Shown: positions 17,524 to 35,353, counted from the stretch's first letter. The stretch is DNA of 64,000 bases from Pseudomonadota bacterium (GCA_043825875.1 JBDRRF010000111.1:21357-85356), one strand, 5' to 3'. Notes: generated by a model not told the origin, from the sequence alone. Numbers and translations are program-made.

Positions 17524-17541
17524 AACCCCTATGCAGGGGTT
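17524..17541. terminator. Small hairpin between convergent genes
   Basis: AACCCCT-ATGC-AGGGGTT. Confidence 0.4.
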
Positions 17542-17542
17542 C

Positions 17543-18292
17543 TTATATTATACTTCTTATAACAATCACAAGCAGCAAAACCACGACTCCTATTATGCCG
17601 TATTCGGGATGGGTCACGGTCTCGTTTTTACTGGCAAGAAGGCCTGGCAGTTCATTGCCAAGCCCATATAAAGCATATACAATCGCATTCCACATCCCGT
17701 GAGCAAGTCCGGCAACAAGCAGGGATTTCGACTTATAATACAACCCGCCGAATATAAGGCCTACTAAAGAAGTTCCTATAACATACAACAGAATTTCCCA
17801 TCCTTTAAGTTTATAAAAAATCCCGAAAGGCAAATGCCAGAGACCGAAAATAAACGATGCAAAGACAATAGCGTAGAAGGGAGAATAAGTTTCATATAAT
17901 TCTCTCTGGACTACACCCCGAAAGAAAAGCTCTTCGGTGAAAGTGGCTATTGTTCCCAATATTATTGCAGATATCGGGATGTTAACCGCTAATTTTAACC
18001 AATCCGTTGATGTCATTTCCTTGCCCAGCTTAAGCCCACCCGACATCCATCCTATAGCTAATGTCAAGCCAAGCACTATGGATACCATCAATATTGCTTC
18101 CAGGTAATAGGAATGACCTCCCACTATAAAACCCATTTTTGAGATAGGTTCATCTCTTCTGAAAAGAAAATGGTATAGTAAACCTAAAAAGCCTACAATA
18201 AATGGAATATAAGAGGCTGTTTTATGTCCGAACAGATTTGGCAGAATAAATGAAAGTAGATAAACAATTAAGATAATAATAGTGATTCGCAT
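17543..18292 (-). CDS. CPBP/CAAX (Abi) family intramembrane metalloprotease
   Basis: EELFFRG, FGLWH, HGMWN motifs and multiple TM helices; ATG at 18292 follows AAGGTG. Confidence 0.88.
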   Translation of the reverse strand: MRITIIILIVYLLSFILPNLFGHKTASYIPFIVGFLGLLYHFLFRRDEPISKMGFIVGGHSYYLEAILMVSIVLGLTLAIGWMSGGLKLGKEMTSTDWLKLAVNIPISAIILGTIATFTEELFFRGVVQRELYETYSPFYAIVFASFIFGLWHLPFGIFYKLKGWEILLYVIGTSLVGLIFGGLYYKSKSLLVAGLAHGMWNAIVYALYGLGNELPGLLASKNETVTHPEYGIIGVVVLLLVIVIRSII

Positions 18293-18337
18293 AAAGCACC
18301 TTCTTTTCATCACATGTTTGTTAAGTCAGCCCTGTCA

Positions 18338-20332
18338 TCAACCTTTAGTTGGTTTGGCGCCTATCCAGTAACCTGCGGGGTAGTCCGTTGATTTTGGGAA
18401 AGGCCTGTAAGGAAGCTCTATTGCCAGAGCCAAAATATGGTCATCAATTATTAGCAACAAGTTCTGATCTATTAAAAACTTTACCGCCTTATCAAAATCA
18501 TTGTTTGAAGCCCCCTCCTTATTAATAAATGTTTTCCTCAATACATCAATTTTTTGAGCCGCATCGCATGCCAGATATATTTTTGCCTCTAGTCCATCTA
18601 ATTCGTAAATGGTACGAACTGCAACCGGACGGGTATCAATAATATATACAACTGAAGACTTTCTTACAATCAGCAGTTCAGGACGATCAGGCTCTTTTCC
18701 CCAGAAGAGATTGTTCCATTCTTTTACTGCTCTTTTGACTTTGTGCAGTCCGGTTCTGGAATTCGTTCCAATAAGGGCAGATAAGATGGGATCATTGTCA
18801 CGTTTTCTGCGTTTTACATCTTCAAAATAGCTGGATAAATCTATTAACTCTTTTTCAGGCAGGCCATAATTGAAAGCAATCAGTGGGTATGGTTTAAGAT
18901 CCAGCTTGTAGCGGTCTGCATGCCAATAATAATCACTATATCTGTCATACCTAACCTGATTTACGGAATCCGGTGGCTCCAGGTGAAACAACAGGGGGAT
19001 AATCTTTGCCATTTCATCATACCATTCATCTTTTTCATCCGGAAAATCAAACATGATTTTCCAGACGGAACGAATGCCATACTGGCGAGCCCACTTGAGA
19101 TACTGTATGTTTTGCCAGGCAAAGGTGCCCTTTTTCATAAGGTGAAGTATTTTACTATGCAGACTCTCAATACCCGGTTGTGTCCAGATGACGCCACCCT
19201 CCGACATAATCTTGATATCATCCCGTTTAAGGGTTGTCCGGACCTCATAAAATATCCGGTATCTACTACCCTGGCAGATAAATTGCTTAAAAAGATCCGG
19301 AACATGTGAGGAATGTAACGCATTATCTACAGCCTCTATCCTGTCTATGTTGTAGCGGTCATGCAATTTTGCTATTTCATTAACGACTTGTTCTACCGGT
19401 TTTGCTCTTTGTCCGTCATTTCTTCCGTTCAAACCACAGAACCTGCATTTTCCCCAGAAGCAACCCCGCGATGTTTCAACAGGCAGGCAGGATACAAGCG
19501 TTCGCTTCAATTCCGGAAAACCGGCGAGTGTTGTAAAATACGCATCATAATCAGGAGGCGGAATGTTTTTTAGAGATGACAAGGTGGCCCTCGGGAAGGG
19601 ATCAGGATACAGGCTTGCTTCCTGACAGGCTTTCGGATAGCCTTTTATCCTGTGTAAAGGGGCAAAAACGCCTTGGGGGATCTCATCCGGGGGTACATCG
19701 GCCCCATTCCCTAAGATAGTTTTGACGAGAGGTACTATTAACTCATCAGCCTCACCGCTTACTACATAATCCACAAATATAAAATTTTTGTGGGTCGCTA
19801 CCCCCATGGTGGTTTCGCAATTTGCGCCACCCATCAATGTAACGATTTCGGGGCATTTTTCCCGCACCCTTTTAAGCAATGCAAGGCTTGGCAGGTGTTG
19901 CTGGAAAGTGGAAGAACACCCGACCATGCGCGGATTTTCTGCGGCAATACGGTCTGCAATCTCTTCAATATAGCTTTTCGCTGTTTTTTTGACAGCGCGA
20001 AGCCGATCCCGAAATGTATCCGGCGGTATATAAGCTGATAACTTCAACTCTTCGATTAGTTTATCAAGATATATTTCATCAGTATCGGTTTTATCCTCAA
20101 ATACAAGACTTGAAAAAACCCAATCGGCTATCCCGAATGTGGAAGATGATTTTTCAATCATCACATAATCTTCTACTTTAACATGGTCACATAAAAGAAG
20201 ATTGCCATAAAGGATTTGAACCTTGATTTCACTTGATGCCAGAATGGAAGAAAGTATTCCAAGTGCCAAGGATGGCCGCTCAAGAGCAGCAAAAGGCATG
20301 TTCACCAGAATTATATCACTTGAAATTTTAAT
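18338..20332 (-). CDS. B12-dependent radical SAM RiPP maturase (TIGR03975/PoyB-PoyC-like C-methyltransferase), paralog 2
   Basis: LVNMPF...RPSLALG, FQQH, GGANCE, ETSRGCFWGKCRFCGLNG, QPGIES. Homology to paralog 1 extends to an ATT at 20332 (the ORF track uses GTG 20305). Confidence 0.85.
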   Translation of the reverse strand: MKISSDIILVNMPFAALERPSLALGILSSILASSEIKVQILYGNLLLCDHVKVEDYVMIEKSSSTFGIADWVFSSLVFEDKTDTDEIYLDKLIEELKLSAYIPPDTFRDRLRAVKKTAKSYIEEIADRIAAENPRMVGCSSTFQQHLPSLALLKRVREKCPEIVTLMGGANCETTMGVATHKNFIFVDYVVSGEADELIVPLVKTILGNGADVPPDEIPQGVFAPLHRIKGYPKACQEASLYPDPFPRATLSSLKNIPPPDYDAYFTTLAGFPELKRTLVSCLPVETSRGCFWGKCRFCGLNGRNDGQRAKPVEQVVNEIAKLHDRYNIDRIEAVDNALHSSHVPDLFKQFICQGSRYRIFYEVRTTLKRDDIKIMSEGGVIWTQPGIESLHSKILHLMKKGTFAWQNIQYLKWARQYGIRSVWKIMFDFPDEKDEWYDEMAKIIPLLFHLEPPDSVNQVRYDRYSDYYWHADRYKLDLKPYPLIAFNYGLPEKELIDLSSYFEDVKRRKRDNDPILSALIGTNSRTGLHKVKRAVKEWNNLFWGKEPDRPELLIVRKSSVVYIIDTRPVAVRTIYELDGLEAKIYLACDAAQKIDVLRKTFINKEGASNNDFDKAVKFLIDQNLLLIIDDHILALAIELPYRPFPKSTDYPAGYWIGAKPTKG

Positions 20333-20366
20333 TTATTCACCTCTTTTTTAAACTGGCTCTTTTGCC

Positions 20367-22412
20367 TCAGATATAATATTGCATATTGTCTATCAGAACA
20401 TTTCCATTTTTGTTGCAAACATCTTCGCACAGTTCCTCTTGTGCCGGATTAAAAAGCCCAAGAGGACAGTCCTCCACTTCGGATAGGGGATTTATTTCTT
20501 CATCAAAAGCAAGCGATAAAATCCTGTTGTCAATTTTAAGCATGATTTTACTATTCAGCATATAATCGATAGCCGAATCGAATTTTTGTGCTGAGAAACC
20601 ATCGGCTTTATATAATTTTCTTAATTTATCCGGATTTTTTGCAGCATCACATGCCAGGTATATTGAACTCTGAAGTTCATCTAACTCAACAGATATGTTA
20701 TTGGTTACGGGACGTGTATCAACGATTTTGACTATCGGATTTTTTTCCTTAATGAACAGAGCAGGCCTTTCATAATTCTTATCCCAGAAATTAGTTCTCC
20801 ACTTGCGAATGGCATTTCTTACCATTTCCAACCCATTTCGTGATCTTATTCCTATTAAATTGGCAAGTAAGGGAGTGGCCTCTTTCTGGGAACGGTTTGA
20901 ATCTTCAAAAAAATATGTTTGGGCCATTAAATCAGCAGGCTTTAGCCTGTAAACCATGCCATAGGATTTAAAAGGTTTCAGCTCCAGATCGAAGTTATCC
21001 GGGTGTTTGCAATATTCGCTGTAGCGATCAAATCTAACCTGGTTTATGGCATCCGGCGGTTCCAGATGAGATAGCAAGGGGATAATTTCAGCCATTTCCT
21101 CATACCATTCATCTTGTTCATCAGGAAAGCCAAACATGATTTTCCATACAGACCGGATTCCATATTGACCGGCCCATTTCAATAATTGTATGTTTTGCCA
21201 GGCAGATGACCCCTTTTTCATTATATCAAGCACCTTGCTGTGAAGGCTCTCTATCCCGGGCTGAATCCAGTTTACTCCCGCTGTATGCAACAACTCAATG
21301 TCTTTTCGTTTAAGGAAAGTCCGAACCTCATAGAATATCCTGTATTTTTTGGACTGCTTTGTCAGTTTGTCAAATAAGTCCGGCAGATGTTTAGGATGCA
21401 ATACGTTATCTACCATATCTATACGATCAATGCCGTAACGTTTTGCCAATGTATTAATTTCAGCAAGTACTCTTTCAGCGGGTTTTATCCGCTGGCCGTC
21501 CTTAGACCCGTTCAGGCCGCAAAAACGGCATTTACCCCAGAAACATCCGCGGGAGGATTCTACCGGCAGAGATGAAATAACCGATTTCTTTAACTCCGGC
21601 ATAGAGTTTAACGTCGCAAAATAATCATCATAATCCGGTATGGGTGATTTGCTCAGATTTTGAGAATCGGCACGAGGGTAGCCATCTCCGGAATTATCCT
21701 TGTTTATTCCAGGATAGCCCGACCGGCGGTGAAGCGGTGCAAAAACCCCATAGGGTATTATTTCAGCGGGTATGTTAATTCCATATTTTATGATTGCCTC
21801 AACGAGCGGTTTTATCAGGTCATCAGCCTCTCCGCTTACAACATAATCAATGAAATCGAAATTTTTGTGGGTTGCCACTCCCATTATAGTCTCGCAATTG
21901 GCGCCTCCTATCAATGTAATGATATCGGGGTTTCTTTCCTTTACTGTTTTAAGAAGTGCGAGACTTGCTAAATGCTGCTGAAATGTAGATGTGCATGCCA
22001 GGATGCGCGGTTTTTCTGAAAGAACAAGCCTTGCAATTTCTTCAACAAAAGCTTCTCCCGCTTCCCTGATTGTTAAGATACGTTGCTTAAAAGTGGCTTT
22101 GTCCAGACGTTTGAAAAGAGGAACATTGTCTATCAGAGCGTTTATATAGTCATCGGAATTTTCATTTGTTTCCGGAAACACCTTCCCGGAAAATATCCAA
22201 TCCCCAAAGGAGTTTTCAGGCGGGATCTTTTCTACGAGAATATAGTCTTGTTTTTTGATGGTTTTCAGAAACAGGATGTTGGCATAAAGGTTGGTAACAT
22301 TGATATTGCCGGCTCTAAGCAAAGACGAAAGAATGCCCAAAGCAAGTGATGGCCTTTCTATTGCAACAAAAGGCATATTTACCAGCATTATATCAGTTTG
22401 TCCTTTAATCAT
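20367..22412 (-). CDS. B12-dependent radical SAM RiPP maturase (TIGR03975/PoyB-PoyC-like C-methyltransferase), paralog 1
   Basis: Same motifs: LVNMPF, GGANCE, ESSRGCFWGKCRFCGLNG, WIQPGIES, QNIQLLKW. Confidence 0.87.
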   Translation of the reverse strand: MIKGQTDIMLVNMPFVAIERPSLALGILSSLLRAGNINVTNLYANILFLKTIKKQDYILVEKIPPENSFGDWIFSGKVFPETNENSDDYINALIDNVPLFKRLDKATFKQRILTIREAGEAFVEEIARLVLSEKPRILACTSTFQQHLASLALLKTVKERNPDIITLIGGANCETIMGVATHKNFDFIDYVVSGEADDLIKPLVEAIIKYGINIPAEIIPYGVFAPLHRRSGYPGINKDNSGDGYPRADSQNLSKSPIPDYDDYFATLNSMPELKKSVISSLPVESSRGCFWGKCRFCGLNGSKDGQRIKPAERVLAEINTLAKRYGIDRIDMVDNVLHPKHLPDLFDKLTKQSKKYRIFYEVRTFLKRKDIELLHTAGVNWIQPGIESLHSKVLDIMKKGSSAWQNIQLLKWAGQYGIRSVWKIMFGFPDEQDEWYEEMAEIIPLLSHLEPPDAINQVRFDRYSEYCKHPDNFDLELKPFKSYGMVYRLKPADLMAQTYFFEDSNRSQKEATPLLANLIGIRSRNGLEMVRNAIRKWRTNFWDKNYERPALFIKEKNPIVKIVDTRPVTNNISVELDELQSSIYLACDAAKNPDKLRKLYKADGFSAQKFDSAIDYMLNSKIMLKIDNRILSLAFDEEINPLSEVEDCPLGLFNPAQEELCEDVCNKNGNVLIDNMQYYI

Positions 22413-22505
22413 ATTCCAATCCTTGATTCAAAATTACTCATAATCGGGATTGCCTTTACAGATACTGGTTCAAGATTAAGCCTGGCCGGTCTTGTATTGG
22501 TGAGT

Positions 22506-23921
22506 TTATAAGGCATCGTCAAAAATTCCGTTTTGAAAAATTGATTGCAAAGTTGCGATGACCGCAAAATAATCTGCGCCGGAGGCAAGCAGTTTCCTGT
22601 TAATTTCCATCGTATTCATCTCACCTGATGCGATCATATCACCCATCTCCTTTAAAAAATCATGCCCCGAAAAACTTGTTTCCCTATACTTTGAACTAAA
22701 ACATATCCCATCATTTGTAGAATGGTATTTCAGGTCCTGACGCAACTTCAGTACCTTGTCATTTTCAAGATTCGATGAAATATTTTCGGAAACGACTTTC
22801 TTTAATATTTGACGGAAATCATCCCCATTTATAAATGTTCCTTCAAAAAATACTTTATAGCCTGAAGGCCATTTTTCGGAAGCGGGGCAGGGACTGATCA
22901 GTTTGATCTTTTTGGTTGCCATGTTGACAACAAAGCCGCTCATACAGGCAATTGTACTACCATCGGCTGTTACGGTTGGATCAGCGTTTGAATACAGGTG
23001 ACGTCCCGCTCTGGCTTTTTTTAGATATAACGGTTTGTTATAAAGCAATAGTCTGGCATTTACCAATTCTTCCGGGGTGAAATTATCATGAACACGCCTG
23101 AGCATAGAGGTTGAGAGAACCGAAAACCGTGTCGAAATGGCATGAAATCTATTTTGCATATTCAACAGTTCGCGCGTTATCTGCACATTGCGCAAGGGTG
23201 CAGCAGTTGTGGTTTGGGGCAGTTCCCCGATAATTTCATGAAAATCCTTTATATAATCCAGATAATGTGGATTATCCATAGGCTCGGTAGCCCAGTAGCA
23301 TACGGATGTCTGACAGGCATCTCCAAAAAGGTCTAACACGGCCTCCAGCACTGAGCGCCATAATTTTGTATTTTGTTCCGTTCGTTCAAATGCACCCTTG
23401 AAATCCTTGGCGGATACACCACAGAAAGGACAGCCCATCGAACAGCCGTCACTTAATTCAAAGGCAAAAAGAGGATAACTGAATATTTTGGAATGTCCTC
23501 CCAGTTCGCTCTCACACCTTTTGCTTTGACGCTGCCGCCAGGCATGGAAGCGCGGCTGTTTTTCCGGAGTATCGCCATGTGACCGCATAAGTTCATTTGC
23601 ATCACAGATTCCCGTAGTCCATTGTGCCCACATTTTGGCAAGAGGACTGTCCCCCATATCTTCGGCAAGAAGCGGCAGAGGATCGCCCCTATCCCATACG
23701 GAGGCCAGGTCCTGAGGGTCAATATCCGCCCCGCATCCGCGGGCAAATTCCTTTCCTTTGCCGGGGTCTTTTCTTAAGGCATCAAGGAATTTACTATCAC
23801 CATAAATGCGTTCGATAAGGCGCTTGGTATGAGCAATGGTTTTTAATTCAACCTCGCTTAATGCAGATAATTTATCTCGGAACAGTTTAAAAACCGATTC
23901 GTTTATTTTATTGGATACCAT
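22506..23921 (-). CDS. Radical SAM peptide epimerase (PoyD/OspD-like)
   Basis: AWRQRQ, FELSDGCSMGCPFCGVSA (CxxxCxxC), YWATEP, PQTTTA, TIACMSGF, ISPC; ATG at 23921 follows GAGAGG. Confidence 0.85.
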   Translation of the reverse strand: MVSNKINESVFKLFRDKLSALSEVELKTIAHTKRLIERIYGDSKFLDALRKDPGKGKEFARGCGADIDPQDLASVWDRGDPLPLLAEDMGDSPLAKMWAQWTTGICDANELMRSHGDTPEKQPRFHAWRQRQSKRCESELGGHSKIFSYPLFAFELSDGCSMGCPFCGVSAKDFKGAFERTEQNTKLWRSVLEAVLDLFGDACQTSVCYWATEPMDNPHYLDYIKDFHEIIGELPQTTTAAPLRNVQITRELLNMQNRFHAISTRFSVLSTSMLRRVHDNFTPEELVNARLLLYNKPLYLKKARAGRHLYSNADPTVTADGSTIACMSGFVVNMATKKIKLISPCPASEKWPSGYKVFFEGTFINGDDFRQILKKVVSENISSNLENDKVLKLRQDLKYHSTNDGICFSSKYRETSFSGHDFLKEMGDMIASGEMNTMEINRKLLASGADYFAVIATLQSIFQNGIFDDAL

Positions 23922-23965
23922 TATTCCTCTCAAAAAAAGATAATGAACTACCCGCCGTAAAGCAG

Positions 23966-23996
23966 AGCGAGATTACCATCAAATGGTAATCCCGCT
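23966..23996 (-). terminator. 14-bp stem-loop between the precursors and the epimerase (leaky terminator or stabiliser)
   Basis: Minus-strand RNA AGCGGGAUUACCAU-UUG-AUGGUAAUCUCGCU (one G-U pair), followed by CUGCUUU. Confidence 0.6.
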
Positions 23997-24025
23997 ATCC
24001 TATTAATCCATAATAACTACAGTGA

Positions 24026-24304
24026 TCAAATAACTCCTACGCAGACCGTAACAACAACCCCTGTGACCGTAACGGCTGTGGCATTGCCGGCACCGCCTGC
24101 TACCTTTTCGAGATCGTCATCACTTAAGCGGCTCTTGGCCTCTTCCGCAAATTTCGTCAACTCATCTTTGCTGAATTTATAGCCGTTTTTATTTGCAATA
24201 GACACGATTTTGTCCATATCCGAACCTGCAGCAGCTAATTCATCCTGAAGGTTCTTCTTCCCCTTGACTTCTGTCTGAAACCTCTTAATTTCTTCATTGC
24301 TCAT
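24026..24304 (-). CDS. Nif11-leader RiPP precursor A; predicted core AGNATAVTVTGVVVTVCVGVI
   Basis: Nif11-type leader (EEIKRF...IVSIANKNGYKFSKDEL) ending in LSDDDLEKVAGG; GGAG RBS. Confidence 0.9.
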   Translation of the reverse strand: MSNEEIKRFQTEVKGKKNLQDELAAAGSDMDKIVSIANKNGYKFSKDELTKFAEEAKSRLSDDDLEKVAGGAGNATAVTVTGVVVTVCVGVI

Positions 24305-24360
24305 ATCATATCTCCATTTGATTGTTATTGATTACGAGTATTGCAATCCGGTGATAGACT

Positions 24361-24624
24361 CTATATTGCTGCACCGGCTAGTACTGATACAACGGCGCCG
24401 CCTGCTACCTTTTCAAGATCGTCATCACCCAGCGCACCGTCTGCCTGGCTTGTTTTTTTGGCATCGATTGCGGCTTGAAGCTCTTTCTGTGTGAATTTAT
24501 AGCCGTGCTTATTGGCACGTTCTACAATTTTAGCCAAGTCACTGCCGACTTCCACAAGTTCCTTTTGAAGTGCCTTGTTTTTATTTGCTTCGGTTTGGAA
24601 TCTTTTGATTTCTTCTGCGCTCAT
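24361..24624 (-). CDS. Nif11-leader RiPP precursor B; predicted core AVVSVLAGAAI
   Basis: Paralogous leader (MSAEEIKRFQTE...GYKFTQKEL...LGDDDLEKVAGG); start 24624 chosen from AAGGA RBS and alignment with precursor A. Confidence 0.88.
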   Translation of the reverse strand: MSAEEIKRFQTEANKNKALQKELVEVGSDLAKIVERANKHGYKFTQKELQAAIDAKKTSQADGALGDDDLEKVAGGAVVSVLAGAAI

Positions 24625-24740
24625 TTTTATTTTCCTTTTTTTAGATGTTGATATTTGTGTTGCATCCATAAGATCGTAACAAGGAGCAACAGTGGGTGTA
24701 AAAGCTCTAATTATGTTTAGATATTTTTATCACCTCCTTT

Positions 24741-25934
24741 TTATTTATACAGGTTTGATGTTTTCAGGGCCTTTTGGAGATATACAGGTGCATCTTTTGA
24801 GGCCAGCTCTTCAAGAGTCAGTAAAGTCAGTGCCAGAAAAATATCGGTTCTGTGATTAACATTGTCAGATCCATGCATAAATGCCCTGTCAAAGTGCTCT
24901 AAATTTTCAGCCGCATATTTTGCAAGTTTCTGGAGTATTTTAAAAGCGCCGTCCGATAGCGGCGGGGACCCCCGGTAATTTTCAATCCTGCCCCCTTTCC
25001 GGTATTCGGGGAAATTTTCCAGACCGAGAAAGCAAAGGAACCAGTCTGCCCGAAAGTGCCCTATCGCCGCTGTAATCCCCATATAGTCGGCGATCAATTC
25101 GTCTAACAACCGGCTGCGCATGGAAGAGAGAACGTGCCGTGTGAAGTAGTGGGCGCACTCATGGTCACGCCGGATTATAATCGACAAACGTATCCAGTCT
25201 TCTTCGGATAGCCCCATTGCTTTGGCCGGTATGCCGCTGTAATGGCCGTCGCTAATGATGATAAACCGGTCCTGGTAAAGATCCTTTTGCAAAACGAGAC
25301 GTTTAAATTCTTCATTCCAGCTTTCTCCGGAAAAATCGAAAGGTTTATCAGCTTCCCATCTTTTGCGATACCTGCCAACCCTGTCCCAGTTATTGTATCC
25401 GGCTATCATGATTGCACCCATGGATTCGGGGATAGGGGCAGGCTCGTTTTTTTCGGTTAGGGCCTGAACAAGGGCTACAAAATCTTCTCTGGCAGCCGTG
25501 ATAATGATGGGCACTCGTCCGGCCGCCGTTTGGTGCAGGTTCAATCTGAGGTCTTCAGGTTTTTTTAACTTCAGGCCGGTTGCCTGTGAGATTTCTTCAG
25601 GATGGATGCCCTTATTCGTGACAGATTTGTAGAATTCCTTTTTGCTGATTCCCTTTTGAATGGGAAACCAGAGCTGCACCAGCGGGATTTTCAGGGAATC
25701 AAAAATGCCTTTGACATCGGCAGATGACAAGTACTCTTCCCAGGCTAAAATATGAGGCTTATCAGGTAGTGGCAGGTTAAGAGGTAGTGCCAAACTGCTG
25801 TGGTCAAACAGGTTCTCGTTATATTTAAGGAGTTCATCTCTCTCATTGGGTTTTGCTCCCAATGATATGAGTACAGAATACCGAAAATGGATACGGCTTT
25901 TTGCAAAAGAGTTTGTTTTACTGGCTGGTGACAT
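24741..25934 (-). CDS. Uncharacterised HExxH-motif protein in the RiPP cluster
   Basis: 397 aa; HECAHYFT followed by LLDELIAD; overlaps the upstream gene by 17 nt. Confidence 0.7.
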   Translation of the reverse strand: MSPASKTNSFAKSRIHFRYSVLISLGAKPNERDELLKYNENLFDHSSLALPLNLPLPDKPHILAWEEYLSSADVKGIFDSLKIPLVQLWFPIQKGISKKEFYKSVTNKGIHPEEISQATGLKLKKPEDLRLNLHQTAAGRVPIIITAAREDFVALVQALTEKNEPAPIPESMGAIMIAGYNNWDRVGRYRKRWEADKPFDFSGESWNEEFKRLVLQKDLYQDRFIIISDGHYSGIPAKAMGLSEEDWIRLSIIIRRDHECAHYFTRHVLSSMRSRLLDELIADYMGITAAIGHFRADWFLCFLGLENFPEYRKGGRIENYRGSPPLSDGAFKILQKLAKYAAENLEHFDRAFMHGSDNVNHRTDIFLALTLLTLEELASKDAPVYLQKALKTSNLYK

Positions 25935-27072: not shown

Positions 27073-27159
27073 GATAGTGCCTCCTGCTGCTAACTCTCAT
27101 ACAAACCTTATCATATCCAAATGGAGTGAAATAATGAGAGTATAATAAAAAAACTATGC

Positions 27160-27301
27160 GAGCCAGTTTCAAAACGCCCCAGCTTGGCCGATCTCTGCGT
27201 TGGGCTCAAATTTCAATCCTCGAAATACTCAATGTATTCCTGTGGTTGAAATTTTCTCCCGCCTTGAGCTTGACCAAGCTGAAACGTTTTGAAAGTGGCT
27301 C
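27160..27301 (+). mobile_element. MITE family A, copy 3 (142 bp)
   Basis: Same TIRs; 4-bp direct repeat ATGC at 27156-27159 and 27302-27305. Confidence 0.88.
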
Positions 27302-30206
27302 ATGCGAGCTGTCTTTTTGCCAGATCAGCGAAAAACCCTTCAAGGGCCATGAGTTCGTCATAGGTTCCCGTTTCCAGAATTTCACCGTGCTGAAGGACAA
27401 AAATTCGGTCCGCGTTGATAATCGTGCTGAGCCGGTGCGCGATTACCACACGGGTTACCTGAAGCTTCTCAAGGCTGCGGCTTACGATCGCCTGAGTGTG
27501 GTTGTCCAGTGCACTGGTAGCTTCATCAAAAAATAGAATCCTGGGTCTTCTGACAATTGCCCTGGCTATGATCAATCTTTGTCTCTGGCCTCCGGATAGC
27601 GTGCCTCCGCCTGCGCTGACCACCGTGTGCATACCCATGGGCATGGCTTCAATGTCTTTATCAACGCCCACCATCCTGGCCGCTGTCCAGGCATCATCAA
27701 GAGTAAGGTTGGAGGTTCCGACAATATTTTTAAAAATATCACCCGGCATTACTTTAGCATTTTGAAGCACAACACCCATCTGGCGCCTTACTTCGCGGAT
27801 ATCAATGGATTCCAAATCCTTACCGTCGTAATAAATAGTGCCGGCCTCCTGGGTATCAAAGCCGAGCAAAAGCCTCAACAGGGTTGATTTCCCTGATCCT
27901 GATCCTCCAACGAGTGCGATAAACTCTCCCGGTGAAATCTGCATGGAAACATCTTTTAATATAAGCGGGCCGTCCGGGTTATAACGAAAATATATATTAC
28001 TGACTTCAATCTCACCGGCCAACTCACCAGGTTTGGCCTTCGTTTCATCAGACTCCGGTACATTTTCAATTATGGGTTTTATCCTCTCATAAAGAGGGAT
28101 TATATTTAAAGAGGTCGTGATGGCTGCAGCCATCTGCAGCATAGCCGCCTGGAAATTACCGTAAGCGGCATTGAATGCCAGAAAATTACCCGTGCTCAAT
28201 CCGCCTTCGTTTGATTTCCAGATTACCCATGCAAAGATGGCCATTGAGGCCACTAAGGGGAAGGCGGCATTAAAGGAAGTTACAACGTTTTGAATCATGC
28301 CCGCCTTGTAGGCGAATTTTTTTTTCTCGGCGAAATTTCGTGTCCACTCGGCAAAAGCACGATCTTCTGTGCCGGAAACCCTAAGCTTGGCAATACCTGT
28401 AATAAACTGCAAAACCATGCCTGATATTTTACCTTCAATTTCAGTCATTTGTCTTTGATAATTTACAATCAGATAACTTGCAAAAACAGTGGAAAGAATG
28501 CTGAAAACGGATAATCCAACCCCAATTATGGCTAGCTTCCAATCGTAATAAAAAAGGAGTACCAGATTAAAAGCAGAAAAAAGACAGGCCAGTATGGCGT
28601 TTACGGTAACACCTGAAAGAATCTGCCTTATCTGGTTGATTCCCATCGCCCTTTTTGCCAGATCTCCTGCGGTGTAATTGCGAAAAAATGGTACGGGCAA
28701 GGCTATGAGTCGATCCCAGAGCGCCGTTTGAACGGTTGAATCCATTATTCCCTCTATGCGCAAAAGAGCAATCCCCTTGGTAACATTGAACATGACGGTC
28801 GCTACCGCAGATGTTGCCAGAATGATGGAGATCTGCATGAGCTGGCCCCGAGCAGCTTCGGGTATAATCGTGCCAAAGATAATGCCGGTCATGATCGGTG
28901 TGAGCAGACCGAGAAGAGCGCCGATGATTCCCATGAAAACAACTGTTGCCAAGGTTCCTGAACATCCTTGAAATCCGAACTTCAAAAGGTCGGCTCCCGT
29001 AAGAGGTCGTTCCGGAAATGGCCTGTAAAAGCAGAAGGCCTCTGAATCCAGGGTATCTGCCATCTGGGAAGTTACTTTATTTTGGGTTCCCTTGACCGGA
29101 TCATGAATATGATATTTTCGTGGCGAGATGGGAATCAATGCTACCGGCTGTTTCCCTTCGTTTATAAATGCGAGCAAGGGACCGTGGTCGAAACGCCACC
29201 AGGTATCTCTTAAAATGACGCTGCGGATACGAAAACCGGAAGTTCGGGCAATATCTTCCAGTGAGGTTTTCCGGCTTTCCTCCTCCGGACCCGAGGGTGA
29301 TCGCACCTTGATATTGAGGGCATTCCCAACCATCTCACAGGCGGATAGCAATGCTTCCCCTTCTCCCCTCCTTGGTACGGGTTTTTCCTTTTTTGTCTCA
29401 AGAATATCCCCAAGGCGGGAAAAGGAACTCATCAGATTGTAACGGTCGGATTCGCCTTTTTTCCGGAGACGCTCCTGTTCAGCAATTTCAGTTCGGCCTC
29501 TGTTAATATCAATGCATTTCAAAACAAATTGATGGAAGGCTTCAAGTGCGTGCCATTGGGGATCTTCTAAAAGAAAGGACGACATATCGATCACATTAAA
29601 AAGTGCTTCACCGGATGTGACGAGCCATGCCTTTGTGGATAAGGGGAAAAGGCTTTTGCCTGAAATTTCGGGCCAGTCTTCCCGGCCCATCAATCGGAGT
29701 TTGCCTTCTATAAGACTGACCCAAATGGTCTCATCCGGCGTACTGAAAGTGCTTCCATCCTTATCCGATATCTGAACCCCGATTTCTATATTCTTGAAGT
29801 TTCGTGGGAAAATATTGTTATCGCGGATTCCTGACGAAAGTCCGTCAATCCACATTTCGACAAGGTTTTTGATCGTTTTGCTGTGTGTTGGCTCAATGGC
29901 AAGTTCAATAAATCTTGATCTTGCGCATGCTACCAGTGATGTCCCCGGACCACCCACAGCCATCAGGGATGTGGCCTGACCAAGCTGGTCCACATTCATC
30001 CCAAACAGAGCCTCTCCCTTTTTAGCCCGAAAAAGATGAATGCGGGGGCCGACGGCATCTCCCTTGTCTGTCCGAACGGAAAACACATCCACCTGTCCGG
30101 AAAGGACAATAAAGACCTTTTCAATATCGGCAAGAAGAAGAGGCCGGTTACCTCTTGTTTCGAAGGGGGTGCCTTCTTTTGAAAATATGTCGAGGTTCTC
30201 TTTCAA
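27300..30206 (-). CDS. NHLP/Nif11 bacteriocin export ABC transporter permease/ATPase (TIGR03797-like) with N-terminal cNMP-binding-like region
   Basis: GGSGSGKS, LSGGQRQR, FFDEATSALD, 6 TM segments; WWRFDHGPL degenerate peptidase-like region. Confidence 0.9.
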   Translation of the reverse strand: MKENLDIFSKEGTPFETRGNRPLLLADIEKVFIVLSGQVDVFSVRTDKGDAVGPRIHLFRAKKGEALFGMNVDQLGQATSLMAVGGPGTSLVACARSRFIELAIEPTHSKTIKNLVEMWIDGLSSGIRDNNIFPRNFKNIEIGVQISDKDGSTFSTPDETIWVSLIEGKLRLMGREDWPEISGKSLFPLSTKAWLVTSGEALFNVIDMSSFLLEDPQWHALEAFHQFVLKCIDINRGRTEIAEQERLRKKGESDRYNLMSSFSRLGDILETKKEKPVPRRGEGEALLSACEMVGNALNIKVRSPSGPEEESRKTSLEDIARTSGFRIRSVILRDTWWRFDHGPLLAFINEGKQPVALIPISPRKYHIHDPVKGTQNKVTSQMADTLDSEAFCFYRPFPERPLTGADLLKFGFQGCSGTLATVVFMGIIGALLGLLTPIMTGIIFGTIIPEAARGQLMQISIILATSAVATVMFNVTKGIALLRIEGIMDSTVQTALWDRLIALPVPFFRNYTAGDLAKRAMGINQIRQILSGVTVNAILACLFSAFNLVLLFYYDWKLAIIGVGLSVFSILSTVFASYLIVNYQRQMTEIEGKISGMVLQFITGIAKLRVSGTEDRAFAEWTRNFAEKKKFAYKAGMIQNVVTSFNAAFPLVASMAIFAWVIWKSNEGGLSTGNFLAFNAAYGNFQAAMLQMAAAITTSLNIIPLYERIKPIIENVPESDETKAKPGELAGEIEVSNIYFRYNPDGPLILKDVSMQISPGEFIALVGGSGSGKSTLLRLLLGFDTQEAGTIYYDGKDLESIDIREVRRQMGVVLQNAKVMPGDIFKNIVGTSNLTLDDAWTAARMVGVDKDIEAMPMGMHTVVSAGGGTLSGGQRQRLIIARAIVRRPRILFFDEATSALDNHTQAIVSRSLEKLQVTRVVIAHRLSTIINADRIFVLQHGEILETGTYDELMALEGFFADLAKRQLA

Positions 30207-30256
30207 ATTATTTAATTTCCCACTTGGTTAAATAAACCTTAAATATGGGGAGAAAC

Positions 30257-32461
30257 TTATTGTTCCCCGATTAATTCAGCGTAAGGCCCCTTGATATTGC
30301 GCATCTCTTCATGGGTGCCCCTTTGCAAGACCTTTCCCTGGTCAAGAACGATTATTTCATCACAATCTCTGATTGTGCTTAAACGATGCGCCACAATAAT
30401 ACAGGTACATCCCCGACGCCTGAGATTGTCATCAACGATTTTCTCTGTATGGGGATCAAGGGCGCTGGTGGCTTCATCCAGGACAAGGATTGTTGGATTA
30501 TTAACCAGTGCCCTGGCTATTTCCAGTCTCTGGCGTTGTCCACCGCTAAAGTTATTTCCTCCCTCTTCAACATTGCTCGAATATCCCCCCGCGCGCATTG
30601 CAATATCGGGATGGATACAGGCATCTTTTGCAGCATGGATGATTGTGGATTCCGGAATGGATTCATCCCACATGGCCAGGTTGGAACTAATTGACTCTTC
30701 AAACATAAAGATATCCTGATCAACCATGGCTAATGAGTTGCAGAATATATCCCGCGGTATTTCATTCATTTTTTTGCCATCAAAAAGGATTTCACCTTCC
30801 CAGGATTCATAAAGTCCGGTAATGAGCTTTGCGATGGTTGATTTGCCGGACCCGGAACCTCCGACCAAAGCTACCCGCATTCCGGGTTTCAAGTTCATGC
30901 TGAAATTTTCTATTAATGGTGGAGCCATGCGGCTGTAACCATAAGTAATATTATTGAGACTCAGATTACCGGATAGTTTTACGGCCAACGAATCCTCTTG
31001 TTTCGATTCCTGATCTGAAAAGTTTGGGGGGAGACCTTGCTCAATGCTAAAACGATTGTCTACGGGATAACTCTGGACATCATCTAACCGATTCATATCG
31101 GCCTGGGTTTCCTGAAGCGTACTGCCTAAATTGACCATATGATTTACAGGCTGCATAAAGCTGCTCATGAGGCTTTGGAAGGCGACCAGCATACCCATAC
31201 TCAAATAGCCGTCCATAACACGCGCGCCCCCGACACCCAGAATTACTACGGTATTCAGACTTGCAAGAAATGGCGGCACCAGGGAAAGTAGTTGGCTGGA
31301 AACGGCCAACTGCTGTTGCGCATTCAGTACCTTGGCCTGATATCCGGACCACTGGGAGAAAAAATCAGATTCTGACCCGGTGGCTTTCAGTGTTTCGATC
31401 ATTTGGAGGCCGTTCATAGCGGTTCCAATCATCTTACCCGCCTCCTGCTGCAAACGCATATTAAGGTCCGTTCGTTTTCGGGATACATATTTCAAAACGG
31501 CAAGATTCAAAAGGGCGATAAAGATACCTACAAGGGTAAGCACTATGTCGTATTGTAACATCAGGATCGCATAAAACATAATCATGGCAAGATTAATGAT
31601 ATTGGTCGCCAACTCCCCTGAAAGTAAGTGAGCCACCTTGTCATTGAGTAATACACGGTCGCCTACCTCTCCCCCAAATCGCTGGGCAAAAAATTCAACC
31701 GGTAATCTGAATACATGCCGGAAAAATTTGCTGGAAGAGGTAAGTGCAAGCTTGGTTTCAAACCTAAGGAGGTAGTACTCCTGAAGCCATGTCAGACCGC
31801 CCCGAATAAGGGCGGTTAATCCCATTGCCAGCAGCAATGGCCTCAGCCAGCCCTCCATGCCGTCGACCAGAATATTATCCACAAAGATCTTGGAAAAGAT
31901 CGGAATTACGAGCCCTGGAATTACAAGAAAAAGACCGGCAAGAACCACAAAGGTGAGTGCTGATTTGGTGCCGACAAAACGTTGACGAAGGGCGCGGAAG
32001 AGGCTTTTTTTCTCTCCCCCTTTTTGGAAGTCCTCTGTTGGTTTAAATATCAGGACGACCCCGGTAAAAGATTGATCGAATTCTTCTACAGAAATTACTC
32101 TGGGGCCTACGGCAGGATCATTCAAAAAAGCGCGACCGTTTTTAATCCCTTCAAGAACAACAAAGTGGTTGAAATTCCAGAAAACGATCATCGGAAGTTC
32201 AAATTCCCTAAGCCCGTCCGGTTCCTTTTTATACCCTTTGGCCTCAAAACCGTATTTTCGCGCCGCCTTAAGGATGTTACTTGCCTTGCTGCCGTCACGC
32301 GAGATGCCGCACTCAATTCTCAGCTTTTCAAGAGGAACAAAGCGATGAAAATAGGCCAGAATCATGGCAAGGGATGCCGCACCACACTCCACAGCCTCCA
32401 TCTGAAGAACCGTCGGTGTTTTTACCCGCTTGTTGCTCCATACTTTTTTCGGTTCGTCCAT
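30257..32461 (-). CDS. NHLP/Nif11 bacteriocin export ABC transporter peptidase/permease/ATPase (TIGR03796-like, C39 peptidase)
   Basis: TPTVLQMEAVECGAASL (catalytic Cys), NHFVV, NDPA; Walker A/B and signature motifs. Confidence 0.93.
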   Translation of the reverse strand: MDEPKKVWSNKRVKTPTVLQMEAVECGAASLAMILAYFHRFVPLEKLRIECGISRDGSKASNILKAARKYGFEAKGYKKEPDGLREFELPMIVFWNFNHFVVLEGIKNGRAFLNDPAVGPRVISVEEFDQSFTGVVLIFKPTEDFQKGGEKKSLFRALRQRFVGTKSALTFVVLAGLFLVIPGLVIPIFSKIFVDNILVDGMEGWLRPLLLAMGLTALIRGGLTWLQEYYLLRFETKLALTSSSKFFRHVFRLPVEFFAQRFGGEVGDRVLLNDKVAHLLSGELATNIINLAMIMFYAILMLQYDIVLTLVGIFIALLNLAVLKYVSRKRTDLNMRLQQEAGKMIGTAMNGLQMIETLKATGSESDFFSQWSGYQAKVLNAQQQLAVSSQLLSLVPPFLASLNTVVILGVGGARVMDGYLSMGMLVAFQSLMSSFMQPVNHMVNLGSTLQETQADMNRLDDVQSYPVDNRFSIEQGLPPNFSDQESKQEDSLAVKLSGNLSLNNITYGYSRMAPPLIENFSMNLKPGMRVALVGGSGSGKSTIAKLITGLYESWEGEILFDGKKMNEIPRDIFCNSLAMVDQDIFMFEESISSNLAMWDESIPESTIIHAAKDACIHPDIAMRAGGYSSNVEEGGNNFSGGQRQRLEIARALVNNPTILVLDEATSALDPHTEKIVDDNLRRRGCTCIIVAHRLSTIRDCDEIIVLDQGKVLQRGTHEEMRNIKGPYAELIGEQ

Positions 32462-32481
32462 TAAAGAATATCCTTTACAAC

Positions 32482-33753
32482 TTACTCCTTACCCACACCG
32501 AGGAAGCTTTTTTTGAATAGGGGAACGATCAGGCTAACGGGACGTTGTTCGGAAATGGTAACCGATGAATAACAGAGTGTTCCCGTATTGACCTTGATGG
32601 GAGGCCCATTAGAGGAAGACCATTTATAGCCGCTGGGAGTTCGTGGATCAGGAATCAGATCCGCGCGTACTTCTATGGGCGCTCCTCCCTGAGAGAGATT
32701 TTGTACCAGCGCTTCGTTTTGAAGATCTCTCATCATACCCTGATGTGTAGAAGGAAACTCTGAAACATAAGTTACCATTCCCCGTATGAAGCCGTATTTT
32801 TCCTGTTTAACGGTGGATGGAGAGATCTGTGCAGCCATGCCAAGTCGAATTTTTTTCCCCTGCCTTGGGGGAAAGTACAAGACGGCTTCCAGATTCTTGA
32901 TATTTTTTCCAATGAGTTCAATGCTGATAAGCGGTATGCCTTTACCGACAACGGAACCTTCATCAACAGCAATTTCCAGGATGCGCCCCGTATAGGGACT
33001 GACGACTTTAGAGGTATCATTCAGATCATTTTGCAACTGATCAATATTCCTTCCCGCCTCGCTTATTTTCTGTTCCATGGCTCTTAGATCTTTTTCCTGC
33101 TGGTTTTTGAGTTGCAGCTTTCTGATAGAGATCTGTTGCAGTTTGTTGAGGTTTTCCCTGTTTTGTTGCAGTGTATTATTTAATTCTTCCTGTGTGTCCA
33201 TCAGCTGTTGCTTTGTAATCAGGCCCATGTCCATAATGACTTTCTGGCTCTCAATTTTATTTTCCAGGTATGTAATGCGGACTTTCAGGGTGGCTATGGT
33301 GCGGTTCAGATTAGCCTTCTGATTTGACATGGACTCTCTTTCAAGTTTCATTTCATTTGATCCAAAAACTGCAATTTGCTCACGTTCACCCAAAAGCTCC
33401 TGTAAAACAGCCCTGGCTGATTTTATCCGGTCTAAAATTTCGGGCTGTTCCAGGCGGGCAACGATCTGACCACTGTGAATTATATCATCCACACTAAAAT
33501 AAAGGTTTTGTACACGGCCTGCGCTATTGGAAACGATTTTAAATACGCCTCCTGATTTCATTAAAATTCCCTGGCCCGCCACTTTATCCGGAATGGTTCC
33601 CCAAAACCCCCAGAAGATTGCACAGGCCAGGAGTCCCATCGCGGCGATGAGCGCAACCCAGCCCTTTGGAGTGGTAATCCTCATCAACTGATCGAGTTGC
33701 TCAGGAGAGGATAACCTCTCCAGGGCAACTTTACGAAAGATTTGATCGGCCAT
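32482..33753 (-). CDS. NHLP bacteriocin system secretion protein (HlyD/MFP, TIGR03794-like)
   Basis: IFRKVALERLSSPEQLDQL N-terminus, coiled coil, SGYKWSSSNGP. Confidence 0.92.
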   Translation of the reverse strand: MADQIFRKVALERLSSPEQLDQLMRITTPKGWVALIAAMGLLACAIFWGFWGTIPDKVAGQGILMKSGGVFKIVSNSAGRVQNLYFSVDDIIHSGQIVARLEQPEILDRIKSARAVLQELLGEREQIAVFGSNEMKLERESMSNQKANLNRTIATLKVRITYLENKIESQKVIMDMGLITKQQLMDTQEELNNTLQQNRENLNKLQQISIRKLQLKNQQEKDLRAMEQKISEAGRNIDQLQNDLNDTSKVVSPYTGRILEIAVDEGSVVGKGIPLISIELIGKNIKNLEAVLYFPPRQGKKIRLGMAAQISPSTVKQEKYGFIRGMVTYVSEFPSTHQGMMRDLQNEALVQNLSQGGAPIEVRADLIPDPRTPSGYKWSSSNGPPIKVNTGTLCYSSVTISEQRPVSLIVPLFKKSFLGVGKE

Positions 33754-33778
33754 GGCCTGTGACCCTCCTCAATCTGTT

Positions 33779-35353
33779 CTAACGGTTCTGCTTGTAATCG
33801 GGAATTTCAGCCAGTTGTTCCATAGTGATAGTATACTCCCCATTGTACTCATGCAGCAGTGTTCCTGTTGCAAAACGAAGTTGGAGCAGAGCGCCGGCAT
33901 ATTGCCTATGAGAAACAACATCGGTTAGCAGGGCATTTCTGTACTTATCCTCAATTCCCACGACATCAATTACTGTGGATAGCCCTATCTTAAGTTTAAA
34001 TTTTTCGTTTTCCAGAGCCTTTTTATAGCTGGCAACTGATTTTTGTGATTCCTGAAGTTCCTTTGTCCTTTGTATGAGGGCATTTATGGCTATGGCAACA
34101 TCGGAATGGATATTTCTCTCCAGGTCAGTAGATCGAATACGTGCCTGTTGATAGGAAGATTTTCTCTGATAATAAAGCCCTTTAGGCGCATTGTTTCCGA
34201 AAGGATAAACTAAACTGATCATGGCTGAGCCGTTTAAACCCCTTACATTTTCCTGAAAAGCATCATAATACCCTGATTCGCTGTCGCTTTCTTCAAGTCC
34301 TTGATAGCCCATGCTAAAAGAAAGATCCAGTTGAGGCCGCATATTTAGTCTGGCGGCCGAGAGCAGTATCCTGGCGGATTCCTGCAACTTTTTTAACGCT
34401 ATCAGATCGGCGCGGTTTTCAGTTGATATCTGAAAGAATTTTTCTCTCTGGCTTATAATTGAAAGTTTCTTTTCAGACAGAAGTTCAGGAAAAATATCAG
34501 CAGGAGTGGGAAGCTCAATAATCTTGCTGTATTGAAGACCCATAGCAATGCCTAATTGCTGATAGTTTTCATACAGATTTTGTTCTCCTTGTATTCGATT
34601 GCCTGTTTTTGAAGCCAGATTTGCCCTGAGCTGGTCAAGATCAGAAGATGGCCGCTCATCAGCTTCTACAAGTTTTTCAACATCTTCTAACAGTTGTTGA
34701 GCCCTGGATTCCGTCTCTTTGAGGATTTTGAGATTCATAAAGGCCGCTAAAAGTGTCCAGTAAGCATTTCCCGTTTCCAGCACGGATGCTGAGACCGTGT
34801 GCCTAAGATCCCTTTCAGAAGCTTGAAGCCGGATTTTCGCCGACATCTCTTCAGCCCCTGCGGCTTCTTTGCCGCTACCCTTGAGAAGGGGGAAAATCAA
34901 AGCGAAATTGACACTGCTTTTATTTGTGGTTTGAGCGCCAAAACTCAGATCATCGTTGCGAGTCATCTGCAGATTTGGTTTTATGGTGATGCCGTTTCTA
35001 AGCTTTTTGCTCAAACTCATCGTATATGTGGTCAGATTTTCCACATCTTTTGAACGCCCGTATAACGCCCTGTCTGCGGCTGTCAGAGGTGTGCTGTTGC
35101 GGGTACGATTAATATCAGCTATTATGGTCGGGTCGAACTGTCCCTGAGTTTGTTGCAGCGCCCCTTTGCTGATTTGTACTTCTTCTTCTTGAATTTTTAT
35201 GGAAGGTTGATGGGAGAGAGTTGTTTTGATGGCATCAATGATACTAAGCCCTTTAGATTTTTCCTGAGCAATAATTTGCGCCGGAACAAAAAGCAGCAAA
35301 GAAAAAAAGATAAGATAAACAGCTCTGATATAAACTTTTTTCTGACTGAGCAT
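33779..35353 (-). CDS. TolC-family outer membrane efflux protein
   Basis: Signal peptide, GQFDP, two OEP helical repeats, ENEKFKLKIGLST; adjacent to HlyD/ABC genes. Confidence 0.85.
   Translation of the reverse strand: MLSQKKVYIRAVYLIFFSLLLFVPAQIIAQEKSKGLSIIDAIKTTLSHQPSIKIQEEEVQISKGALQQTQGQFDPTIIADINRTRNSTPLTAADRALYGRSKDVENLTTYTMSLSKKLRNGITIKPNLQMTRNDDLSFGAQTTNKSSVNFALIFPLLKGSGKEAAGAEEMSAKIRLQASERDLRHTVSASVLETGNAYWTLLAAFMNLKILKETESRAQQLLEDVEKLVEADERPSSDLDQLRANLASKTGNRIQGEQNLYENYQQLGIAMGLQYSKIIELPTPADIFPELLSEKKLSIISQREKFFQISTENRADLIALKKLQESARILLSAARLNMRPQLDLSFSMGYQGLEESDSESGYYDAFQENVRGLNGSAMISLVYPFGNNAPKGLYYQRKSSYQQARIRSTDLERNIHSDVAIAINALIQRTKELQESQKSVASYKKALENEKFKLKIGLSTVIDVVGIEDKYRNALLTDVVSHRQYAGALLQLRFATGTLLHEYNGEYTITMEQLAEIPDYKQNR

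Follow-up and report, generated by a model that had tools for sequence, protein, structure and literature searches.

A 64,000-nucleotide stretch of a Pseudomonadota genome (GCA_043825875.1, JBDRRF010000111.1:21357-85356; here called the window, with all coordinates counted from its first letter) contains twelve co-oriented genes, all on the minus strand from 35353 to 17543, whose families suggest a pathway for short, hydrophobic peptides that are made by the ribosome and modified after translation (RiPPs). The genome carrying the cluster (G000), that of a groundwater bacterium, is 99.8% complete. Family identities were assigned by Pfam and NCBIfam profile searches of the window proteins at curated cut-offs, and these bear out the gene families named in an earlier, sequence-based annotation (hereafter the original prediction): NCBIfam cut-offs are exceeded by the two precursors, the epimerase, the two methyltransferases, and the three export proteins. 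In order from 35353, the first four genes encode a TolC-like outer-membrane efflux protein (524 residues, 33779..35353; PF02321 in two stretches, 111 bits, and 76 bits only against TIGR01844, under its cut-off), an NHLP-system HlyD adaptor (423 residues, 32482..33753; TIGR03794, 399 bits, cut-off 156), a C39 peptidase-ABC transporter predicted to be the leader peptidase and exporter (734 residues, 30257..32461; TIGR03796, 1135 bits, cut-off 853), and a second ABC subunit without a peptidase (ABC2; 968 residues, 27300..30206; TIGR03797, 999 bits over residues 283-967, cut-off 709). In the C39-ABC transporter, the peptidase domain has its Cys, His, and Asp motifs. The N-terminal extension of ABC2, about 280 residues long, has no Pfam match, and an Atlas feature search returned only weak leads resembling cyclic nucleotide (cNMP)-binding proteins (0.83-0.84, none reaching 0.9).

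The next two genes encode a LivK-like substrate-binding lipoprotein with a lipobox-like Cys (384 residues, 25918..27072; PF13458, 139 bits), which has no permease partner in the cluster, and a DUF7005 protein (397 residues, 24741..25934; PF22541, 513 bits), previously noted as an HExxH protein. These are followed by two Nif11 precursors (precursor 1, 87 residues, 24361..24624; precursor 2, 92 residues, 24026..24304; TIGR03798, 53 and 40 bits, cut-off 32), a PoyD-family radical S-adenosylmethionine (SAM) epimerase (471 residues, 22506..23921; TIGR04517, 448 bits, cut-off 325), two B12 radical SAM methyltransferases (MT1, 20367..22412, and MT2, 18338..20332; TIGR03975, 591 and 561 bits, cut-off 282), and a CPBP/CAAX-family intramembrane protease (256 residues, 17543..18313; PF02517, 75 bits). 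Intergenic gaps range from -17 to 227 bp, in a measurement that took the epimerase and MT2 to begin a little too late; judged from alignment and from ribosome-binding sites, precursor 1 most likely starts at ATG 24624 and the epimerase at ATG 23921. As noted originally, Pfam and NCBIfam scans find no N-methyltransferase, dehydratase, or LanM among the twelve genes, a scope that for the N-methyltransferase excludes any search of the wider genome with AerE or PoyE models. Genome searches with PF13575 (LanM-type dehydratase) and TIGR03793 were blank, and their controls were silent too. PF23525 was rejected as an N-methyltransferase marker, being AprA-like and not AerE-like, and its blank result is uninformative. 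Gene calls and Pfam likewise find no regulator or sensor encoded in the cluster.

Precursor 1 consists of a 76-residue leader and an 11-residue core (24364-24396) of four Ala, three Val, and one each of Ser, Leu, Gly, and Ile, with a grand average of hydropathy (GRAVY) of 2.45. Precursor 2 has a 71-residue leader and a 21-residue core (24029-24091) of eight Val, four Thr, three Ala, three Gly, and one each of Asn, Cys, and Ile (GRAVY 1.83). Counted from the Gly-Gly site, these core lengths agree with those given originally. Without modification, the 21-mer and the 11-mer have monoisotopic masses of 1929.06 and 969.59 Da. Neither core contains Pro, and both lack an Nx5N motif, with a single Asn in the 21-mer and none in the 11-mer. 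Both leaders carry V/L/L at -4/-7/-12, the pattern described for recognition by peptidase-containing ABC transporters (PMC10885120). The TIGR03798/PF07862 leaders with a double Gly and the linked TIGR03794/03796/03797 cassette place the cluster, by profile, among the Nif11-type RiPPs (N11P) as defined by Haft et al. 2010 (PMC2887384). The strict definition of a proteusin rests on a TIGR03793 NHLP leader (PMC8784127, which also applies the term loosely to one Nif11 product), and both precursors match TIGR03798 alone in NCBIfam. They are the only Nif11 precursors in G000, which encodes one epimerase and one DUF7005 protein in total. The gap that separates the precursor genes from the epimerase gene holds a 14-pair RNA hairpin (minus strand, 23966..23996; the intergenic fold has z = -4.4, with one of 200 shuffles equally stable), which may stabilise or partly end the precursor transcript.

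The epimerase and the two methyltransferases differ in their nearest relatives. In the epimerase, Cys160/164/167 (the CxxxCxxC cluster motif) and Cys326 are invariant in all 84 aligned epimerases, and Cys326, which would correspond to PoyD Cys372, is the candidate hydrogen-atom donor. The 84-sequence tree groups the enzyme with a Desulfomonile-type long-core clade (support 0.96). The methyltransferases were placed in a FastTree tree of 47 sequences, comprising open reading frames (ORFs) of at least 600 residues and at least 33% identity, with shorter or more distant ones left out. MT1 and MT2 are sisters in this tree (support 1.0) and share 52% identity, against 42% at most with any of the other 45, and the pair groups with Bacillota short-core enzymes (support 0.935). 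Their sisterhood to the exclusion of the 45 others argues for an independent local duplication, which is the simpler reading of a tree without PoyB and PoyC; MT1 and MT2 are therefore probably not PoyB/PoyC orthologues, as they had been taken to be. Their cluster motif also differs: Cx4Cx2C is present in 11 of the 47 tree sequences, namely MT1, MT2, and the Bacillota short-core enzymes grouped with them, whereas Cx7Cx2C, the motif of PoyC (PMC11285071), is present in 35, with one sequence unmatched. Matches of both enzymes to the B12-binding family PF02310 are weak and under the cut-off. With different nearest relatives for the epimerase, the methyltransferases, and the export genes, the cluster looks like a mosaic.

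Taken together, these genes suggest a two-module RiPP pathway, in which a maturation module feeds an NHLP-type export module. The two Nif11-leader precursors would be made in surplus over the enzymes, as the hairpin hints. The PoyD-family enzyme would then abstract the C-alpha hydrogen and return one from the opposite face via the invariant Cys, leaving several D-residues in the Val/Ala/Thr cores, as expected from the family basis for multi-site epimerisation through Cys (PMC8326336). MT1 and MT2 would methylate unactivated carbons, most likely converting Val to tert-leucine (tert-Leu) by analogy with PoyC, AerC, and EreB. Being duplicates, they may well share out the task by precursor or by core region, a reading with about an even chance. 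Finally, the C39 domain would cut after Gly-Gly, for which C39-type cleavage provides the basis (PMC10885120), and the ABC, HlyD, and TolC proteins would export the 21- and 11-residue products. The pathway as a whole, with multi-residue epimerisation, β-methylation of Val and Ile, Gly-Gly cleavage, and export of short hydrophobic peptides, is likely, on the strength of family analogy, and the recurrence of the epimerase, TIGR03975, and hydrophobic-core design in distant taxa supports it. The product type originally proposed thus stands as far as short, hydrophobic, epimerised, C-methylated peptides and type I export are what the families lead one to expect; the description "D-amino-acid-rich" is likely but not given, as some PoyD-like enzymes epimerise one residue (PMC11583998, PMC10676384). 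Less can be said of the remaining proteins: weak hints assign the CPBP protease and the LivK-like lipoprotein to self-protection or product binding, and the protease could serve in immunity or processing.

Comparison with characterised systems sets the limits of this analogy. Like the polytheonamide (poy) and aeronamide (aer) clusters, the window cluster combines a PoyD/AerD-family epimerase and TIGR03975 C-methyltransferases (two in poy, one in aer) with a long leader ending in Gly-Gly and a hydrophobic core (PMC9060474, PMC11285071). Unlike them, it has Nif11 rather than NHLP leaders, cores of 11 and 21 rather than more than 40 residues, no Nx5N, no N-methyltransferase (PoyE/AerE), and no LanM-type dehydratase for an N-terminal cap; a C39 transporter stands in place of the stand-alone PoyH/AerH protease, and the methyltransferases are a local duplication with Cx4Cx2C in place of Cx7Cx2C. 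The Nif11 leader, the short cores, and the absence of Nx5N, N-methyltransferase, and dehydratase therefore exclude the cluster from the polytheonamide class as far as that class is described in PMC9060474 and PMC8784127, and the label "mini-polytheonamide" is not supported. Similarly, cores of 11 and 21 residues fall short of the more than 40 residues needed for a monomeric bilayer-spanning channel. A further chemical parallel is the pythonamide (ere) cluster, which shares an epimerase, a B12 methyltransferase, and a Val-rich core without Nx5N or lanthionine (PMC9259500). There, EreD and EreB give about seven D-Val/D-Ala and up to seven Val methylations, and D-Val/D-Ala and tert-Leu have been demonstrated. 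Pythonamide also differs in its 46-residue core, FkbM backbone N-methyltransferase, and oxygenase (PMC9259500), and the window cluster in its two short precursors and two methyltransferases.

The DUF7005 gene lies directly upstream of the precursors, and its family was examined across genomes and metagenomes. At least 2,627 homologues were found among 8,000 scored candidates. An HExxH motif at 258-262 is followed by ExxxD at 279-283, and an alignment of 119 sequences shows no variation at His258, Glu259, His262, Glu279, and Asp283; a metagenome scan found HExxH-x16-ExxxD in 79 of 80 DUF7005 ORFs. The pattern of HExxH with a downstream Glu ligand is that of gluzincins, although the spacing to this Glu is shorter than in thermolysin or M1 peptidases. 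A structural model built from the alignment reached a predicted local distance difference test (pLDDT) score of 91.8, against 36 for the single-sequence fold. Foldseek found no match to this model in the PDB at E <= 0.001, and the family profile found nothing significant among PDB sequences. The best fold matches, among them thermolysin, lugdulysin, DPP III, and an M36 protease, are weak (Z 4.0-4.6; for thermolysin, Z 4.4 and a root-mean-square deviation of 4.8 over 174 aligned residues), and being all under Z 5 they may reflect a shared helical arrangement only. An M1 peptidase gave template-modelling scores of 0.37/0.24 (Atlas). DUF7005 is thus probably a cytoplasmic metallopeptidase with a gluzincin-like site, to judge from the motif and the model.

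The genomic context of DUF7005 points to export rather than to any particular core chemistry. Within 37 loci of at least 10 kb, which are not independent and include near-duplicates and one G008-type copy (G008 is a genome of the same genus), there are 29 in which no more than 3 kb separates DUF7005 from a gene for export, a precursor, or an epimerase. An epimerase homologue occurs in only five of the 37, and the idea that DUF7005 is specific to epimerase clusters was rejected. The cores next to DUF7005 genes are unrelated. LivK-like homologues occur in 14 of 80 DUF7005 loci, and 14 of the 59 neighbouring proteins scanned (out of 78 listed) are cNMP-binding proteins. In L093, L106, L117, L132, and similar loci, a ParA/MinD-like ATPase, DUF7005, and a cNMP-binding protein follow one another, usually with HlyD and an ABC pair after them. 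By its gene neighbourhoods, DUF7005 is a recurring accessory of NHLP-type export cassettes, and the marginally favoured role for it is that of a zinc peptidase in the cytoplasm, removing leaders once they are released or trimming the precursors. If instead DUF7005, or the CPBP protease, were a true tailoring enzyme that trims, caps, or alters the core, then the final product would not be the linear peptide released at Gly-Gly. The position of the gene, its strictly conserved metal site, and the existence of alpha-ketoglutarate-dependent HEXXH RiPP enzymes with a zincin-like fold, of a non-hydrolytic iron type (PMC12636437), are in keeping with such a role. It is nevertheless quite improbable, given that the gene tracks the export cassette and not the core chemistry and that O2-dependent chemistry is unlikely in a dsrA-bearing host. 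The third Glu ligand, moreover, presumably fits a gluzincin better. No mention of DUF7005 was found in the literature library searched; its recurrence in NHLP-type export systems, with a conserved HExxH-x16-ExxxD site, appears to be newly described here.

Comparison with G008 indicates that the cluster is maintained. The block from 17533 to 35519 is 95-97% identical at the DNA level, all reading frames are intact, and the ratio of non-synonymous to synonymous substitution rates (dN/dS) lies between 0 and 0.33 for all twelve genes; the cluster is under purifying selection between the two genomes. The cores themselves are identical, with four synonymous and no non-synonymous changes, too few for more than a weak test of selection on the cores. 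Two groundwater sequencing runs, X2 and X3, from two studies distinct from that of the possible source run (X1), also contain the region. One 22.4-kb contig of X2 spans 17533-35391, nearly the whole cluster, and X3 covers the region in pieces; these contigs may belong to the G008 strain. At the ABC2 stop codon lies a 142-bp repeat (27160..27301) resembling a miniature inverted-repeat transposable element (MITE), which has terminal inverted repeats and is not part of the pathway; G000 has 325 hits to it, spread over 85 contigs, of which 215 are near-full-length copies. This copy is missing in G008, bypassed by contigs of X2 and X3, and is a recent insertion. MT2 has no ATG, GTG, or TTG before its first conserved strand, and likely uses a non-canonical ATT start at 20332, which lies five bases after a GAGGTG site in both G000 and G008. 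The inserted MITE and this start codon, together with a patchy occurrence (the epimerase in two of 61 relatives, and the C39-ABC gene in two of 17 genus genomes), are what a recently acquired, silent, or decaying island yielding no product might display. Such an island is very improbable, with twelve of twelve frames intact in two species at the low dN/dS values above and no frameshifting indel inside genes listed in runs X2 and X3. Two RNA runs gave cover almost only on the MITE repeat, and have no bearing on expression.

Several points weigh against the proposed pathway. The product and its modifications are predictions from the genes. Epimerases belonging to other clusters reach 53% identity at most, and PDB sequence searches found no significant solved relative of the epimerase profile or MT1. 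The absence of an encoded capping enzyme limits a channel role. To these are added the weak fold matches of DUF7005, the small number of core changes, and the lack of a canonical MT2 start. NstF and CcaD appear to epimerise a single Pro, and the chemistry of Cx4Cx2C enzymes may differ from that of Cx7Cx2C enzymes. On these grounds, the epimerase might act on one or two residues only, the Cx4Cx2C enzymes might methylate other atoms or iteratively extend one side chain, and the products would be lightly modified signals and not membrane agents. Cyanobacterial homologues give few epimerisations, NstA is proposed to build an isobutyl group, extracytoplasmic-function (ECF) sigma-factor genes adjoin the precursor in the short-core relatives L048, L067, and L075, and a LivK-like binding protein accompanies the export cassette. 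Yet the cores are Pro-free and made of residues that multi-site enzymes modify, the epimerase and methyltransferases score far over their family cut-offs, and the window cluster encodes no sensor or regulator of its own, so that sparse chemistry is rather unlikely and multi-site epimerisation with Val methylation remains the preferred reading.

The distribution of this design was determined from an alignment-based epimerase scan of species-representative genomes, used after a single-sequence scan gave nothing. At least 334 stretches were confirmed and 78 loci kept; as many of these end at contig edges, counts on them are lower bounds. By blastp, a methyltransferase homologue is present in at least 42 of the 78 epimerase loci and a Nif11-like ORF in at least 51. 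Short hydrophobic cores with an epimerase and a methyltransferase occur in at least eight loci under the rule that all cores are at most 26 residues, and in at least 11 if one counts L048, L079, and L082, where a longer core is present as well. These 11 comprise eight Bacillota loci together with L018, L040, and L072, and are mostly from anaerobic Bacillota. In 13 selected loci, all 30 enzymes pass TIGR04517 or TIGR03975. The order epimerase-MT-MT is found in five loci, four of which have cores of 46-51 residues and include the precursor; short cores with tandem methyltransferases occur, among the listed loci, only in G000 and G008-type contigs. Within the phylum, TIGR04517 is passed in seven of 401 genomes, and three of six phylum regions were analysed, each with one precursor, two epimerases, and four methyltransferase homologues. 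These three (L190, L191, and L193, in G077, G154, and G218) encode a Nif11 precursor with a 35-40-residue Thr/Glu/Val core followed by two tandem epimerase-MT-MT modules, and are a richer target than the window cluster. Therefore, the combination is not as rare as had been supposed.

Among the relatives, L059 (Desulfosporosinus) has nearly the same set of genes, with a precursor (10-residue core), an epimerase, TIGR03975, DUF7005, a LivK-like protein, HlyD, and a C39-ABC transporter. Other Bacillota relatives are L048, L066, L067, L075, L076, L079, and L082, and the Bacillota methyltransferases share Cx4Cx2C and are sister to the window pair. The Desulfomonile-type loci L007, L011, L012, and L024 share the order precursor-epimerase-MT-MT but have 46-51-residue cores, whereas the short-core relatives differ in having one methyltransferase per epimerase. 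G418 has an export cassette 58-78% identical to that of the window, but with a SPASM-like enzyme and Cys-containing cores. Earlier genome surveys also contain similar arrangements. Letzel et al. 2014 (PMC4289311) describe Nif11-type precursors with 14-18-residue cores in Desulfitobacterium and Desulfotomaculum, accompanied by a peptidase-ABC transporter and more than one radical SAM gene, while Haft et al. 2010 (PMC2887384) describe the TIGR03794/6/7 cassette beside N11P genes. Both sets are predictions; in the accessible text of these papers, no DUF7005 or LivK-like gene is mentioned, and that of PMC4289311 does not assign the radical SAM enzymes to epimerase or methyltransferase families. 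Epipeptides (EpeE/YydG) resemble the predicted product as short peptides with D-Val/D-Ile introduced by a radical SAM enzyme and with action on membranes, and differ in their unrelated epimerase family, short leader, and lack of methyltransferases (PMC8326336).

The original prediction recognised no characterised cluster here, and the literature searched likewise shows no match, MIBiG being outside the scope. Nor was a characterised product of any short-core epimerase/methyltransferase cluster found in the literature searched, where the majority of the primary papers about such enzymes are missing; the 2,346 NHLP/Nif11 clusters listed in the PMC8784127 supplement may contain this type. The cluster is intact and, as far as searched, uncharacterised, built from known enzyme families in an outline common to a dozen other loci. 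Its products are probably membrane-active. Membrane-active antagonism among anaerobes is the leading, though tentative, suggestion for their role, falling somewhat short of an even chance, and signalling is a doubtful second. A more far-reaching possibility, unlikely when taken as a whole, is that anaerobes have an undescribed family of ribosomal peptides of gramicidin length, with the window cluster as its leading example. In that case, the 21-mer would form an alternating D/L, tert-Leu-rich beta-helix, crossing the membrane either as a dimer or in partnership with the 11-mer; the Cx4Cx2C enzymes would make up a subfamily of their own for short cores; and DUF7005 would represent a new family of metalloenzymes at work in hundreds of NHLP/Nif11 export systems. 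Gramicidin, a D/L peptide of 15 residues, forms its channel as a dimer, and in residues 12-20 of the 21-mer every other residue is Val.

Only a few epimerase/B12-methyltransferase RiPPs have been characterised, and these are long. Cores of 11 and 21 residues thus offer a minimal system for site choice by the enzymes and for the split of labour between duplicated methyltransferases, and the pathway is a potential source of tools for placing D-residues and tert-Leu in short peptides. The cluster further draws attention to an entire group in strict anaerobes that has yet to be studied, and DUF7005 gains a first functional context. No new biosynthetic principle is implied unless DUF7005 or the product activity turns out to be unusual.

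The host had been described as an apparent anaerobic hydrocarbon degrader, a description that the fumarate-adding, BamA, and EbdA-type genes searched for do not support. The two glycyl-radical enzymes of G000 do not look like BssA or MasD: when their PDB hits are ranked, MasD and TutD/BssA come close to last, behind glycerol dehydratase and CutC, while a single 793-residue entry with the label benzylsuccinate synthase comes 5th and 15th. The only full activase that was scanned reaches 238 against a BssD cut-off of 496. BamA (TIGR03200) reaches at best 71 of 464, in a search where no control exceeded the cut-off either, and the EbdA type (TIGR03479) has no match over the cut-off, at best 243 of 985. 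A glycyl-radical enzyme and activase on contig C83 of G000 (L167:1435-3843) pass no named family cut-off. In contrast, dsrA is over its cut-off, cobS is present, and the left part of the window encodes beta-oxidation enzymes; a fatty-acid-oxidising sulfate reducer would be a better guess.

The CPBP gene is the final gene of the block common to G000 and G008. Between it and the converging deacetylase gene lies a hairpin (17524..17541; terminator-like match, fold z = -2.9) that is the probable operon end, and identity with G008 stops at 17533, inside this region. Because G008 has a different left flank, the flanking deacetylase and beta-oxidation genes were rejected as parts of the pathway and placed outside the cluster. 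The G008 flank (L005:980-4371) carries a lysine-2,3-aminomutase-like gene and two D-Ala-D-Ala-ligase-like ATP-grasp genes, co-oriented with the cluster and not at the corresponding place in G000. Scans for promoters (43 against 36.5 +/- 5.7 in shuffles) and terminators (23 against 19.3 +/- 4.9) gave no excess. A 126-residue ORF (27156-27536) was rejected as a gene, as it has no family and starts inside the MITE repeat. Further MITE copies lie at 35434-35597, 15257-15399, and 15543-15684, the copy just upstream of TolC carrying an internal insert, and a lone terminal-repeat remnant (20332-20366) abuts the MT2 ribosome-binding site. Beyond the cluster, 36133-64000 is probably an adjoining island; its GC content is 51-58% over most of the stretch, against a genome mean of 39%, and by eye it holds a 2890-residue ORF resembling cyclic beta-glucan synthase and an ATP-synthase-like operon.

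Other epimerase loci have additional genes of possible interest. A MetX-like alpha/beta hydrolase gene directly follows the methyltransferases at L007:6085-7182, L024:15367-16464, and L040:13434-13997, and in L007 and L024 an AprA-MT2-like methyltransferase gene converges on it; both are possible extra tailoring enzymes. Nif11 leaders are fused to a 1278-residue protein of no other family (L038:2690-6523) and to a dCache/HAMP protein (L071:14181-15914), each near an epimerase gene. Additionally, L087 (9653-15227, in G418) joins an export cassette to Nif11 precursors with 10-13-residue Cys-containing cores and a SPASM-like radical SAM enzyme, and also holds a distant PoyD-family epimerase (348 bits).

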